Shown here: one piece after another, positions 41,107-61,420 of the stretch
Position numbering within the stretch: position 1 is the first letter of the stretch
Layout of the letters: each line of letters opens with the position of its first letter
Assembly (NCBI GenBank): GCA_964016885.1
Contig: OZ024741.1
Coordinates: 190,340,001-190,404,000, forward strand
Source of the DNA: Eledone cirrhosa
Lineage: Eukaryota
DNA: 64,000 nucleotides
Direction: 5' to 3'
The notes under the pieces: model-generated
What the model was told of the DNA's origin: nothing
The model's input: only the letters and a program-made list of their open reading frames with translations
The model's database searches: none
Translations under genes and position numbers: made by a program

Positions 41107-44100
41107 TATAATAATAATAATAATAATAATAATAATAATAATAATAATAATTTCTTTATTGACCACAAGGGTTTACATAAAGTAGACATTAAGGACAGTA
41201 CAGGACGGTACAAATGGGCATTTCTGCGTGTAAAAAAAACAGAGGATGTAATAAAAATAACAATGAACAATTCCCCAATAGGGGGGAGACTTCCGAAGGA
41301 CATTTGTGGAGAAAGCCCATTAAAAGGCCACAGTGACCCTGACCACCAGGGCAAGTGCCCTCTTCCAGTTTTCCACCTTTAATTTAAAGACACATACTCA
41401 GAGTAGGCCCATTCACTCGGGCCATACTTGCTTCTCTCACCCATCTTTCAACAAAATGCTGGGAAGAGAGCACTTCCCTCTCTACCCTGATTTTCCTTTT
41501 CAAATGAAATTTGAAAAGTTAATCAGGGCATCAACGAAGAGGTAAGTGCTCGATCTCAGCCCTTTCAAACGTGTCCACCATACTATCTCTTTCGCCATGG
41601 CCACCAGACAGATAAAAACTGCCTGCCCTTCCCGGCTAAAGGAAGAGGGCGGGGAAATCCTCACGATAGACTCAGCTGATAGCTGGATCCGTCCTACACG
41701 TGACAGCAGGTGTTCGACATAAACCCACAAGTCAGCAATGCTCGGACACTGGACGAGTGCGTGCAGGACGGTTTCGTCGCCCTGCGAGCATCTCGGACAT
41801 GCCCGGCTGACGGCACCTCCATGCCTGTAGAGTTTATCCCGAACTGGCAAAGCTCCTCTGTAGCACTGCCAGGCCAGGGATTTCTGGAAGTTGTCCATAG
41901 GCTCCGGCCCGAAAGTCCTTCCGAAGAGATTGGCTAGTTGATCTTCGTCGACGCATAGAGTTTCTCCAAGTACGTCGTCGCTCTTCCCCTCCACTAATCC
42001 TCTATAGAACGCCAAGGTGGAGTTTCCACCGATCACATTGCCCGATTGGTCGAGGGCTGTGAGCGCCTGAAGACATTCCAGTCTCCAAGCGCTCCCTCTC
42101 GGTCTTCGCTTGACCCAGGACTGCAGCTCCGCCAAGGAGACGAGCTGGGGAAAGACGTGTCTAGCAAACGGCGACCACACCTGATCACCGTTGAGGAAGA
42201 GGTGGAGATGTCGTAGCCTGAGCGCGTGTCTGCTCATCATCAGCCACGGCATGCCCAGCCCTCCACGTAGCGGGTGTTGACAGCAGATGGACCGCCTGAA
42301 CATCGGAGCGCGTCCCTTCCACAAAAAGCGAAAGAGCAAACGCTCCAGCGCAGTCAGGCGGGGCTTAGGACAAGGTACGACGGTCAGGCGGTAGTAGATG
42401 ACGGACGCGATGTACGTGTAGCGGTTGTCTCCCTTGTTTTGATTGGGATCTAGACGGGAAGTGGAACCCTTTCTGCAACTTCCGGTCAGAGCCCTATAAA
42501 ACTAACAACTTTAAGCTTCCTTTCTCTCTTTGCCTTTTCGGCACCAGGTCAAGAGTCTTCTCATTTGGCTCTGCCATTAATTTGGCCAACAGGCGCCTGG
42601 CCTTAGCCAGGCGCCCTCTGCCAGCCGCGTTTGCCTGGCAATCAAAACGGTAACTACTAACTTTGTTTCATTCTAACATCTATCTTTGACATGTCAAGTA
42701 TTCTATCTACCGTTAATTAAATATTATATACACAAACCATGTCTCGTTTTGTTACATTCATACAACCAGTAATCTCGCTATATTGGTAACCCTGACGTGA
42801 TACGAACACGCAGCCGTTCATCGCTATAAGGGTCATTCTTTCATCGCTATAAGGGATATTCTTTAAAAAACATTTCAACAGGAACATTTATTTCCGATGA
42901 ACCATTGCCTTTTGTTCATCGTTCTAGTTTTTTGTTTTTTTCCAGAGTTCACACCAATAATTATGCTGAGTGAAGCCTTTCTTTTTCATCATTGTCACTT
43001 TCAAAATTGCACTGTCATTTTCTCGCGCGTTAGAAATATTTTTTTTCAACCTTGTATTGGCACGTGTAGGCAGCATAAATTCTCGATTCACTGAGATGTC
43101 TCTACTCACAGACAGCCGCACGCCAGAGATAGCATTTCTCCCCCAAGGATTCTTCAGCCTTAAGCTATATTCTTCTATTTGCCGGTTTATAAATTTACAA
43201 TGTAAATTTACAGTTGATAACCGCGCATTTATTAAGAATGCTTATTTCTCTGGTCGCTGGCCTCTTGACCCTTCCAGGTCAACGCATTCTCAACATCGAC
43301 CATCAACTTCGGCTACTATTTCTAGCACTTTGCGCAACTCATTTTTTCTAAAAAAAAATTTTTTACTGTGAATTTAAACACCGAATACGCTCACTCAGCG
43401 AGACAACAGCAGCAGCAACAGCAATACATCAATACAGCTTCACCAAAGCCAGAGAATTCATTTTTGCAGCACTCTTCCTGTGAGAAAATCCATTCGGAGG
43501 TTGGAAATTTCACGATATACCACAGAACAGAAACCACCTGCATTCATTCTCTGGAACACACTTTCTTTCCTGCTGTCATGTGATTGCACACCTGTGAACT
43601 ATATTTTGAACTTTGAGCTCTTCTATTACTTTTACTTTATTACATTGTATCTTTGGGTGATGGATAGATGGATGTCCAGTCGTTCTCTGGCCAAGAGCGG
43701 TTGGCTACCTTGATATCTATCATTGATTTTTCCAGACATTCTTTTGTCGTAATTTTCATGCCTGTTACAACATTCTCGCCAACTTGCTACATATTTTCAT
43801 TTCGATTTTTATACACTAAAATTCTGGCGGGAGGTTATGTAGCGGTTGTCTCCCTTGTTTTGTTTGGGATCTAGACGGGAAGTGGAACCCTTTCTGCAAC
43901 TTCCGGTCAGAGCCCTATAAAACTAACAACTTTAAGCTTCCTTTCTCTCTTTGCCTTTTCGGCACCAGGTCAAGAGTCTTCTCATTTGGCTCTGCCATTA
44001 ATTTGGCCAACAGGCGCCTGGCCTTAGCCAGGCGCCCTCTGCCAGCCGCGTTTGCCTGGCAATCAAAACGGTAACTACTAACTTTGTTTCATTCTAACAT

Positions 44101-46258
44101 CTATCTTTGACATGTCAAGTATTCTATCTACCGTTAATTAAATATTATATACACAAACCATGTCTCGTTTTGTTACATTCATACAACCAGTAATCTCGCT
44201 ATATACGCGTTAGCCACCTCCGCTCGACCTTTCAGAGATAGCTTCCTCTCCGCTCATTTCTGGGTGAGAGAAGCCACCCTGCTCGTCATCTCGTCCCAGA
44301 TATTATCCGTCTGGAGGTCCGGACCGAACCAGACCCCTAGCAAAATAACCGGTCCGTCTGTCCAGCGCCCTACGACGCTGTTGGACGGCATGGACCTGCC
44401 TCTCCAGGTTGTCGAGCTGCAGGCCCACTGACTTTTCCTGGTTGATCATTGCTCCTGTCACCGCTTCGTATTCTCTTAGTGTAGTGCCGATCGCCTCGAT
44501 GTGTTTGGCGTTCGACACCACTACGGTGACATCGTCCGCATATGCTGACACGGATCGTCCGCATCCTAGTTCGCGCGGGACCCCCCTCAACGTCTCCAGT
44601 TTGTGCAGTAATGGCTCGAGAGTCAATACGTACAAGAGGGACGAGAAGGGACATCCTTGGCGGACCGAGCGCATGATGTTGAACGGTTCCGAAAGGTGAC
44701 CGTTCACTCTCACGACAGAGCAGATATCGCTGTGCATGGCAGCGATCCAGCCTCTGAGGACGGGCCCAAAGCCAGCCGCCCTCAGGACTGCTGCTAGGTA
44801 ACGATGGTCTACCCTATCAAAAGCTTTCGACTGATGTAAATTGATCAAGGACCCACCCGTGCCAGGTTCCCTAGCTACCCTCTCTACGATGTATCGCATG
44901 AGGTGGAGGTTGTCGTGGATGGATCTGTCGGGAATGGCGCACGTCTGCGCCTCTCTCACCAGACCACCAACGACAAGCGCCAACCTCTTTGCTAGCACCT
45001 TGGCCAAAATCTTGAACTCTGTGTTTAGCAGAGTTATGGGCCTGAAATTATCTATGTTATCCCCCTTGTTCGGATCCTTTCTCAGCAGCGCCACCGCTCC
45101 TCGGCTCACAGAGCTGGGAATTCTCGCATTCTGTTGCCAGTTGCAGTAGACATCCACCAAGAGGCCTCCGAACAAGTCTGGCATCTGTACGTAAAGTTCA
45201 TAGGGCAGACCATCCAAACCAGGCGATTTATCCCTTGTGCAGACAGTCATTGCCTCCCGTACTTCAGCGGCTGTTATCGGTTTTTCGCAACACTCCGCGG
45301 CAGTCCGTCGAGGTAGACACTAAAGTCTATCCCTCGAGCCGGCCCGCCGCTGCCCCCGAACAGCTGTGCGAAGTGTCGCTGGAAAGCTTCACACATTTGA
45401 CCGGGATCGAGTAGCATGCGCCCGTCGTGGTCCACCAAAGACCGGATCGTGGCTTTGTTGCCACGACGCGCCTCCGCCATCCGGGCCCATTGAACGGCTT
45501 TCGTCCCCTCGTGTCCGAGAGCACGCACCCTAGCTCCGACAACGCAGCCTTCGTGCTTTGCATTGAAGAATTGGTCAAGGGCCAATTTCGCCGCAAGTAC
45601 GTCGGTCGCGATGCCTTTGCTAAGCACCTCGTCTAATTTTCTAACTAGTTCTCCCTCTGCTCTATTTTTCTCTATTGCTAAAGCCTTACTAAACCTAATG
45701 GACTCTATTCTAATCGCTCTTTTTAGAGCAAACCACCACTTGTTGTTGACGATGGTCCCCGTCAACGCCCGCTTAACTAGTTCGCTAATCCGGTCTCTGT
45801 AGGCCTTACGCGCTGGTAAAGACGCGTTTAGCTTCCAGTAGCCGGGTCCTCGTCTATGAAGCCTATCTAAATCAAGCACACAGATCACGAATTTGTGGTC
45901 CGTGTAGCTGACTATCTTGAATTGTGGATAGCCTATGCTAGACCTATCTATTTCCCTATAAAATACCCTATCTAGATATGATTTGGATGACCCGATGCGG
46001 TTTGTCCAAGTCCACATTGGCACATTCGGGATATCCAATCGGTACCTGTCCGACAGTTGAAAACGCCTGAGTAGGTTTGCAAGGCTTTTACACCCTCCTC
46101 CCCTATCCGCTAATCCCACACAATCCCAGCGTGCATCTGAGATCCCGTTCCAGTCGCCCACTAACACTAAAGAGCGGGACGTTCCAAGAAGGGTCTCCAG
46201 ACGCCGGAAGAATTCAGGTCGTCCTGCTCTTGTTGGGGCATAGGCGGCCACTAGTCTG
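41107..46258 (-). mobile_element. L1/Tx1-clade LINE ORF2 (EN-RT-C-terminal zinc finger), interrupted by an LTR element
   Basis: ORFs 45274..46251 (AYAP, VGDWN, YLDR, PGYWKLN), 44303..45250 (KSPGLDGLP, FRPITLLN, KAFDRVDH, VRQGCP, AYADD) and 41500..42339 (CPRC...ETVLHALVQC); AATAAA followed by an (ATT)n tail at ~41107-41160. Confidence 0.93.
42417..44203 (+). mobile_element. Non-autonomous LTR retroelement: 366-bp LTRs (42417-42782, 43838-44203), tRNA-Trp PBS, PPT, 4-bp TSD TACG
   Basis: The LTRs differ at one position I could see. PBS TGGTAACCCTGACGTGAT at 42784-42801; purine tract GGCGGGAGG before the 3' LTR; no gag/pol in the 1055-bp internal region. Confidence 0.95.
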
Positions 46259-46261
46259 AGT

Positions 46262-61060: not shown

Positions 61061-61091
61061 CATTAAAATGTTAAACGATATTCAATGATTA

Positions 61092-61420
61092 TATAGCGAG
61101 GATACTGGGTTGTATGAATGTAACAAAACGAGGCATGGTTTGTGTGTATAATATTTAATTAACAATGGTAGATAGTATAGTTGACATGTCAAAGAAATAG
61201 ATGATAGAATGAAACAAAGTTAGTCGTTACCGTTTTAATTGCCAGGCAAACGCGGCTGGCAGAGGACGCCTGGCTAAGGCCAGGCGCCGGAAGGCCAAAT
61301 GAGAGTGAGCCGAAGGCTATTCGTTTTATAGGGCTCTGACCGGAAGTTACAGAAAGGGTTCTACTCCCCGTCTAGATGTTAATCTATTGGGGTTGAGTCA
61401 CAAGGGAGACAGCCGCTACA
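61092..61420 (-). mobile_element. Solo LTR related to the 42417-44203 LTRs, 4-bp TSD ATTA
   Basis: Minus strand TGTAGCGGCTGTCTCCCTTG...CCTCGCTATA; ATTA at 61088-61091 and 61421-61424. Confidence 0.93.

Follow-up and report, generated by a model that had tools for sequence, protein, structure and literature searches.

Gene-less LTR insertions with TA or AA right ends in an octopus genome: probable passengers and remnants of CsRn1-type Ty3/Gypsy elements

We assign four LTR insertions in the window (the whole stretch of DNA analyzed here, 64,000 nucleotides long), as likely passengers and remnants, to the CsRn1 clade of Ty3/Gypsy elements; the proteins of intact octopus CsRn1 elements, acting in trans, probably moved them. 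We make this assignment because all three published cis hallmarks of the clade were found and because the clade is abundant in the host group. Two of the insertions have paired LTRs (E1 and E2), and two are solo LTRs (S3 and S4). They and their parts, with target site duplications (TSDs) and primer binding sites (PBSs), are as follows.

42417-44203, + strand: E1, two LTRs, non-coding, 1787 bp; TGTAGCG...CGCTATA; TSD TACG at 42413-42416 and 44204-44207
42417-42782, + strand: E1 5' LTR, 366 bp, TGT...ATA; TATAAA 42495-42500, hairpin 42595-42612, CGGTAA 42648-42653, ATTAAA 42716-42721
42784-42795, + strand: E1 PBS, 1 nt past the LTR; 10/12 positions agree with the CsRn1 tRNA-Trp pattern of PMC2582038
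43016-43837, + strand: E1 internal core, non-coding, common to E2; purine-rich tract GGCGGGAGG at its end, 3 nt before the 3' LTR
43838-44203, + strand: E1 3' LTR, 366 bp, TGT...ATA; identical to the 5' LTR at 365/366
52413-52980, + strand: S4, solo LTR, 568 bp; TGTAGCG...CGTTAAA (TGT...AAA); TSD GAAG; internal 82-bp tandem pair
56820-58958, - strand: E2, two LTRs, non-coding, 2139 bp; TGTAGCA...TGTTATA; TSD GGGG in element orientation
58530-58958, - strand: E2 5' LTR, 429 bp, TGT...ATT; TATAAA 58832-58837, hairpin 58776-58794, CGGTAA 58673-58678, AATAAA 58589-58594
58516-58527, - strand: E2 PBS, 2 nt past the LTR; 12/12 positions agree with the CsRn1 tRNA-Trp pattern of PMC2582038
57250-58163, - strand: E2 internal core, non-coding, common to E1; purine-rich tract GGCGGGAGA at its end, before the 3' LTR
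56820-57249, - strand: E2 3' LTR, 430 bp, TAT...ATA; 414/429 aligned bases the same as in the 5' LTR (K2P 0.036)
61092-61420, - strand: S3, solo LTR, 329 bp; TGTAGCG...CGCTATA (TGT...ATA); TSD ATTA on the + strand

All four insertions lie where an earlier, sequence-only reading had placed them, with the termini and 4-bp TSDs it gave. The outer ends are TGT...ATA in three elements and TGT...AAA in one (S4). For three of the four, the exact ends and the TSD are backed by uninterrupted relatives of the host LINE. Both flanks of E1 match an uninterrupted paralogous LINE, on which they overlap by exactly 4 bp (47438-47441); a 6-bp TSD was ruled out, 4 being the only exact length. The flanks of E2 overlap on an RTE paralog, again by exactly 4 bp (15768-15771). 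S4 interrupts a LINE endonuclease after GDF and before NHPEID, and the uninterrupted homologue has GDFNHPEIDW (tblastn with the endonucleases encoded in the window did not reach the host of S4; the flank of S4 was the query of an exhaustive phmmer search). The fourth, S3, is 91% identical to the LTR of E1 over the 3' 209 columns of S3. We take the host of E1 to be an L1/Tx1-like LINE, with RVT_1 and zf-RVT matches flanking the element on both sides, and that of E2 is presumably an RTE-like LINE reverse transcriptase, where there is an RVT_1 match. The window also holds a PPAT exon (99% to O. sinensis), a match that points to an Octopus host.

A relaxed scan for terminal motif plus TSD returned 4 TATA-type, 1 TAAA-type, and 7 TACA-type candidates in the window, and the same scan of 8 shuffled windows returned 0-3, 0-5, and 1-9, respectively. 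Terminal motif plus TSD is thus not above chance and was set aside as evidence in its own right, so the case is built on LTR pairing, primer site, and empty sites.

TATAAA and CGGTAA occur in 6/6 LTRs, and the hairpin, attributed at the outset to three elements, in 5/6, S4 being the exception. The LTRs of E1 and E2 are 80% identical to each other. The near identity of the E1 pair supports a young insertion, as the recent activity proposed for this element would imply. S4 stands apart: it has no BLAST match to the other LTRs and no nhmmer match at E<10, and its local-alignment scores (z 1.2-2.7) were matched by 29, 5, and 25 of 200 shuffles and are not significant. Its link to them is weak: without aligning to them, it shares their opening 7 nt and a CGGTAA at -130. 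S4 is therefore a separate LTR family, and to speak of one group of four was an overstatement. Beyond the five related LTRs, BLAST and nhmmer found no further related copies in the window.

The internal regions of E1 and E2 measure 1055 bp and 1280 bp. The suggested tRNA-Trp primer was borne out in both elements, as scored against the published CsRn1 pattern rather than an octopus tRNA-Trp gene; with both strands scanned, the exact pattern occurs once in the window, in E2. The shared core has 88% of aligned bases the same (blocks 92-100%) versus 80% in the LTRs, and its RNA folding is weak and inconsistent (z -1.9 and -1.1). The PBS-proximal leaders are barely alignable (score reached by 4/300 shuffles). 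These are the only two copies with two LTRs in the window.

That E1 and E2 are non-coding, without gag-pol, is supported by several searches. Among 148 frames of at least 80 aa in the window, taken outside the tandem array at 5050-7150, no frame within the elements had a Pfam match at E<=0.01, and the set contained no integrase, protease, or Gag match and no autonomous partner. In word-indexed searches at E<=1, a 137-aa E2 frame had no match among proteins of near lengths and a 133-aa E1 frame none among longer proteins; an ESM Atlas search with these frames, the two longest internal ones, gave nothing usable (scores of 0.84 only), and 6/7 internal frames had nothing beyond sub-cutoff noise in Pfam at E<=1. 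Comparing the two elements, 5/23 indels are divisible by 3, and a synonymous excess is found in no frame. A coding remnant was considered and dropped on these results. The non-coding character first claimed thus stands for E1 and E2; the solo LTRs are uninformative on autonomy.

Bae et al. (2008; PMC2582038) describe CsRn1-like Gypsy elements with TGT...ATA or TGT...AAA ends, a 4-bp TSD, and a tRNA-Trp PBS. Here, the 4-bp TSD is present in 4/4 elements, the ends in the outer termini of 4/4 (4/6 single LTRs, the inner ends of E2 deviating), and the PBS in 2/2 elements that have an internal region; both published end types are represented. TSD, ends, and PBS together support the original call of Ty3/Gypsy-type LTR insertions. 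The same combination was in print for CsRn1 in 2008, so the TG...TA end itself is not new, and at the level of the clade elements with these termini were already described. A later HMM study gives the right-end motif for CsRN1 as MSYYAMA (CA or AA) and kept TG...CA in its model (PMC3601003 Table 3). This motif excludes TA, fits exactly in 1/6 LTRs (S4), and differs from the 2008 description, which indicates that non-CA ends are not universal in the clade. Four-bp TSDs and a Trp primer are also known beyond CsRn1 (hymenopteran Helenus, Gypsy-32_NVi). CsRN1 was found in 9/12 cephalopods, and 15 CsRN1 families (3.23 Mb) are listed for O. bimaculoides (PMC6238403).

At somewhat less than an even chance, E1 and E2 represent two subfamilies of a single non-autonomous lineage, long-lived and undescribed, that depends parasitically on octopus CsRn1; the core would be selected as a packaging signal, the LTRs and leaders would turn over, and E1 would have recently transposed. 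It is rather unlikely, and compatible with the clade assignment, that each is instead an autonomous CsRn1 element whose gag-pol was lost after insertion, leaving normal untranslated regions. The internal non-coding DNA of autonomous AgCR elements (1.0-1.6 kb in 8/14) and PwRn1 (1053 bp) matches the internal regions of E1 and E2 in size, and the poor alignment of the leaders also fits such a loss, but it requires two independent clean deletions with no detectable gag/pol remnant, and the deletion in E1 must predate more than one LTR substitution. Movement by some other Gypsy clade, described or not, that came to use TG...TA ends independently, the novelty implied by the earlier reading, is improbable: the elements hold no protein by which to place them, and the mollusc survey reports unclassified Gypsy families in O. 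bimaculoides, but the triple match to the CsRn1 hallmarks and the abundance of that clade in the host group argue for CsRn1.

LTRs usually end in CA on the right, and terminal bases do mutate: the E2 3' LTR begins TATAGCA and its 5' LTR finishes TGTTATT, so the inner ends of E2 are neither TG nor TA. That original TG...CA ends decayed independently to TA or AA after insertion is nevertheless scarcely credible, given the same penultimate T in 5/5 related LTRs, including both copies of the nearly identical E1 pair, and the absence from the window of a CA-ending relative by BLAST or nhmmer. Because both LTRs of E1 and of E2 have this T, the non-CA right end is an inherited trait, not decay. The asymmetric TG...TA end first proposed is accordingly heritable in E1 and E2, and S4 ends in AA instead; the final A is retained at all four outer right ends, and the penultimate C alone is relaxed. 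There is also very little chance that these are small-RNA-derived, Pol III-transcribed TRIMs of the Helenus or Ajax type. Animal Helenus elements make 4-bp TSDs and are present in molluscs, but ARAGORN found no tRNA, Rfam gave no match at gathering score (of 24 matches at E<=1, none lies within the four elements), and there are TATA and poly(A)-type signals. No tRNA- or 5S-derived LTR segment was found, although a very degenerate one could escape.

From structure, ends, TSDs, PBS, and lack of coding signal, all observed directly, we infer a helper and the transcription, packaging, and end processing of the passenger RNA. Helper Gag would package E1 and E2 RNA, probably via the conserved internal core; helper reverse transcriptase (RT) would use tRNA-Trp at the PBS to prime the minus strand, and the purine tract to prime the plus strand. 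The integrase would trim a few extra bases per end (LTR and PBS are separated by 1-2 nt) and join a canonical CA-3' (left) and a TA-3' or AA-3' (right) to a 4-nt staggered cut. The solo LTRs would be later products of LTR-LTR recombination.

These are probably ordinary members of the CsRn1 group, gene-less passengers and leftovers, and the non-autonomous form (E1 and E2 with their common core) may be uncatalogued. Literature searches for the PBS string and for TG...TA notations gave no match, and the titles and abstract openings of papers on octopus non-autonomous LTR elements included none on the E1/E2 family. If the lineage is real, it would be a Trp-primed, TG...TA-ended animal TRIM-like group excluded by design from RT-based mollusc surveys. 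A conserved non-coding core in a form without genes would also show where to look for the packaging signal of this clade, on which little work has been done. With its minimum LTR distance of 2500 bp and its RT-based filtering, the mollusc survey would have passed over E1 and E2. Elements of this kind would be undercounted in octopus genomes by filters that insist on TG...CA, by a minimum LTR distance of 2.5 kb, or by an RT requirement. The earlier warning that LTR finders would miss them holds for strict TG...CA filters and not for mismatch-tolerant or motif-free runs (one pipeline in print for animals combines -motif TGCA -motifmis 1 with a second run that sets no motif) or for LTR_retriever, whose motif list includes TGTA (bioRxiv 10.1101/137141). 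Acceptance of a TG...TA end by an integrase would be important were it not already in print for CsRn1-like elements; the natural TA and AA ends here are usable integrase substrates.

Among known systems, E1 and E2 resemble TRIMs in having two LTRs, PBS, purine tract, and no coding capacity. Within the window they are two diverged copies with a common core. The proposed TRIM/LARD-like size did not hold, since they exceed the <1 kb of TRIMs (PMC10886601, PMC6934838) and fall short of the >4 kb of LARDs (PMC4558846), although they are within the looser <4 kb TRIM definition of the latter source. Two LTRs around a non-coding interior are also found in ta-TRIM (PMC4558846), PbTRIM (PMC3532108), and biv-TRIM (PMC6934838), and ta-TRIM (E. 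multilocularis) and PbTRIM share PBS, purine tract, solo LTRs, and 4-bp TSD with the elements here. However, all three are smaller (about 1 kb at most), the primer of ta-TRIM and PbTRIM is tRNA-Leu, the ends of ta-TRIM are TG...CA, and biv-TRIM is without a canonical PBS. TG...TA is also a listed motif of non-canonical plant LTRs (LTR_retriever), but 89% of classified cases there are Copia, with 5-bp TSDs, a lineage unrelated to these elements. The closest likeness is to CsRn1, PwRn1, AgCR1-14, Kabuki, and Boudicca, which, according to PMC2582038, have TGT...ATA/AAA ends, the tRNA-Trp PBS pattern, a purine tract before the 3' LTR, and a 4-bp TSD with no sequence preference. AgCR LTRs are given there as 146-407 bp, versus 329-430 bp here (S4 is longer, 568 bp); the difference is that gag-pol is absent here and that E1 and E2 are 1.8-2.1 kb rather than 4.2-6.3 kb. 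The clade is further marked by protein features (a CHCC motif in Gag, a GPY/F integrase, and its place in RT/RNase H/IN trees), and E1 and E2 encode neither Gag nor Pol. The O. bimaculoides CsRN1 families, as described in PMC6238403 supplement 3, were delimited on RT/RNase H and have LTRs spaced 2.5-11 kb from each other, and, compared by description only, Gypsy-1_OB and others among them are presumed members of the same clade in the same host genus and candidate helpers.

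Four LTR insertions lie in the window, two of them paired-LTR elements with non-coding interiors (E1, 1787 bp; E2, 2139 bp) and two solo LTRs (S3, S4). The coordinates, ends and target-site duplications (TSDs; 4 bp each) assigned to them by a sequence-only reading are correct in every case, as follows.

42417-44203, + strand: E1, LTRs 42417-42782 and 43838-44203, identical at 365/366 sites
56820-58958, - strand: E2, LTRs 58530-58958 and 56820-57249, 414/429 aligned sites identical (K2P 0.036)
61092-61420, - strand: S3, solo LTR, 91% identity to the LTR of E1 over 209 columns
52413-52980, + strand: S4, solo LTR without significant similarity to the other LTRs

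By themselves, the terminal motif and 4-bp repeat do not rise above chance. A relaxed scan of the window returned 4 candidates ending in TATA, 1 in TAAA and 7 in TACA, compared with 0-3, 0-5 and 1-9, respectively, in shuffled windows (n = 8). Other evidence sets the boundaries. The E1 flanks match an uninterrupted LINE paralog on which they overlap by exactly 4 bp, and the flanks of E2 likewise overlap by exactly 4 bp on uninterrupted RTE-like paralogs. In the case of S4, a LINE endonuclease is split, with GDF on one side and NHPEID on the other, and one homologue of its flank reads GDFNHPEIDW (122 homologue matches, 53 with GDF, 20 of these 53 continuing NxP). This empty-site comparison covered E1, E2 and S4; both ends of S3 are the same as those of E1. 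The TATAAA and CGGTAA motifs that had been read as shared are indeed present in all six LTRs. Five of the six carry a hairpin (folding z -2.5 to -3.7 in the four copies folded), and an A(A/T)TAAA signal is found 59-62 nt from the LTR end.

An exon of PPAT (amidophosphoribosyltransferase) at 7271-7498, with 99% identity to the Octopus sinensis protein, identifies the DNA, at the level of sequence, as octopus. The protein maps in 11 pieces on the minus strand, from 39185 down to 1162, and the insertions are located 3-22 kb upstream of the first PPAT coding exon, amid piled LINE remains. Three of the four are within LINE coding regions (41503-61420); in the host LINE frame of E1, the downstream side is stop-free and the upstream side is open for 338 aa. 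Two other LINE copies (15617-17501 and 26208-28547; 95% identity), which we take to be RTE-like, carry RT frames that stay open for 525 and 581 aa, and in the former a PHD-finger match follows the RT. A PPAT intron holds a tandem array (5122-7123, ~64 copies of a 30-bp unit) with long stop-free frames. A dispersed repeat of ~335 bp (12143-12480, 29926-30263 and 31275-31603; 95% identity), flanked by simple repeats and without TG...CA ends, is probably a SINE. At 60151-60268, a near-perfect, MITE-like palindrome of 118 bp adjoins a TA-rich tract; its sub-threshold miRNA-family matches likely reflect the hairpin only.

The non-CA right end is inherited, because the penultimate position is T in 5/5 related LTRs, including both of E1. 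Counter-evidence comes from E2, in which ends have mutated after insertion (the 3' LTR begins TA and the 5' LTR finishes TT). These are inner ends, which the integrase does not use for that insertion. All four insertions keep A as the last base of the outer right end, and BLAST and nhmmer gave no relatives ending in CA in the window.

The internal regions measure 1055 bp (E1) and 1280 bp (E2). The primer-binding site (PBS) starts 1 nt (E1) or 2 nt (E2) past the 5' LTR, and a purine-rich tract common to both elements stands ahead of the 3' LTR. The core that they have in common is collinear (BLAST identity with gaps 71% over 807 columns) and lacks a coding signal, with 5 of 23 indels divisible by 3 and a synonymous excess in no frame. 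No Pfam match at E<=0.01 was obtained in any element frame, no integrase, protease or Gag family matched among 148 frames of >=80 aa in the window, and homologue searches with the internal frames were empty; weak evidence singly, these blank searches agree with one another. The E2 core includes a 75-bp tandem duplication (57751-57903) that E1 does not have. The E1 leader has two 23-bp repeats (42817-42864), each holding TCGCTATA, an 8-letter string that also forms the right end of the LTR. The E2 leader has an inverted copy of the last ~30 nt of the LTR (58470-58580, - strand), and E2 RNA is predicted to form an extended U5-leader stem whose loop contains the PBS (-30.5 kcal/mol, z -5.3, 0/200 shuffles). 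E1 has no such stem (z -1.0). In E2 it could serve to control priming, or be the scar of a template switch.

It is a close call whether these elements transpose in their deleted form, and we put the chances that E1 and E2 represent a true non-autonomous lineage at about even. For such a lineage speak two independent insertions with one common non-coding layout, stronger conservation of the core (identity at 88% of 722 aligned bases) than of the LTRs (80% of 301), and the very young age of E1. The interiors could also be ordinary untranslated regions remaining after deletion, because 8 of the 14 autonomous AgCR elements (CsRn1 clade) are described as having 1.0-1.6 kb of internal non-coding DNA (PMC2582038). 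No publication on such a non-autonomous family in octopus was found among titles and the opening parts of abstracts, with subscription journals, Repbase and Dfam outside the search.

The insertions would behave as CsRn1-clade Gypsy elements without proteins of their own. Their RNA, presumably transcribed by Pol II from the TATA box and polyadenylated near the A(A/T)TAAA signal, would be packaged and reverse-transcribed by a helper, with tRNA-Trp and the purine tract as primers. Integration would be into a 4-nt staggered cut, through a left end CA-3' and a right end TA-3' or AA-3', and later LTR-LTR recombination may have left S3 and S4.

In CsRn1-like elements, according to Bae et al. 2008 (PMC2582038), TSDs are 4 bp long, the ends are modified to TGT...AAA or TGT...ATA, and the PBS is for tRNA-Trp, with the pattern TGGTGA(G/C)CCCG(T/A); PMC3630058 likewise gives the Trp PBS and the 4-bp TSD as hallmarks. 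Both published end types are present among these insertions. The E2 PBS fits the pattern at 12/12 positions, the sole exact case among the window's eight matches with <=2 mismatches, and that of E1 at 10/12. Membership in the clade is thus supported on cis features, to which the comparison is limited because Gag and Pol are absent. Elsewhere the CsRN1 right end is given as MSYYAMA, in a model described as TG...CA (PMC3601003, Table 3), and therefore the clade is mixed in its right ends; S4 is the only insertion that fits this 7-mer. TG...TA is among the non-canonical motifs listed by LTR_retriever (bioRxiv 10.1101/137141; PMC8220671). The odd ends, which the sequence-only reading had singled out, are an already published trait of a clade that is abundant in octopus. 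CsRn1 is common in mosquitoes (PMC3286476, PMC3026039). Among cephalopods it was reported in 9/12, and in O. bimaculoides, where it comprises 15 families and 3.23 Mb, it ranks second after the Mag AB clade (PMC6238403). That survey accepted only LTRs 2500-11000 bp apart, with similarity in RT/RNase H as a screen, and its de novo step would have left out E1 and E2, whose LTR starts are 1421 and 1709 bp apart. As small non-autonomous LTR retrotransposons for comparison, we took the animal TRIMs of PMC4558846, PMC3532108, PMC6934838 and PMC10886601.
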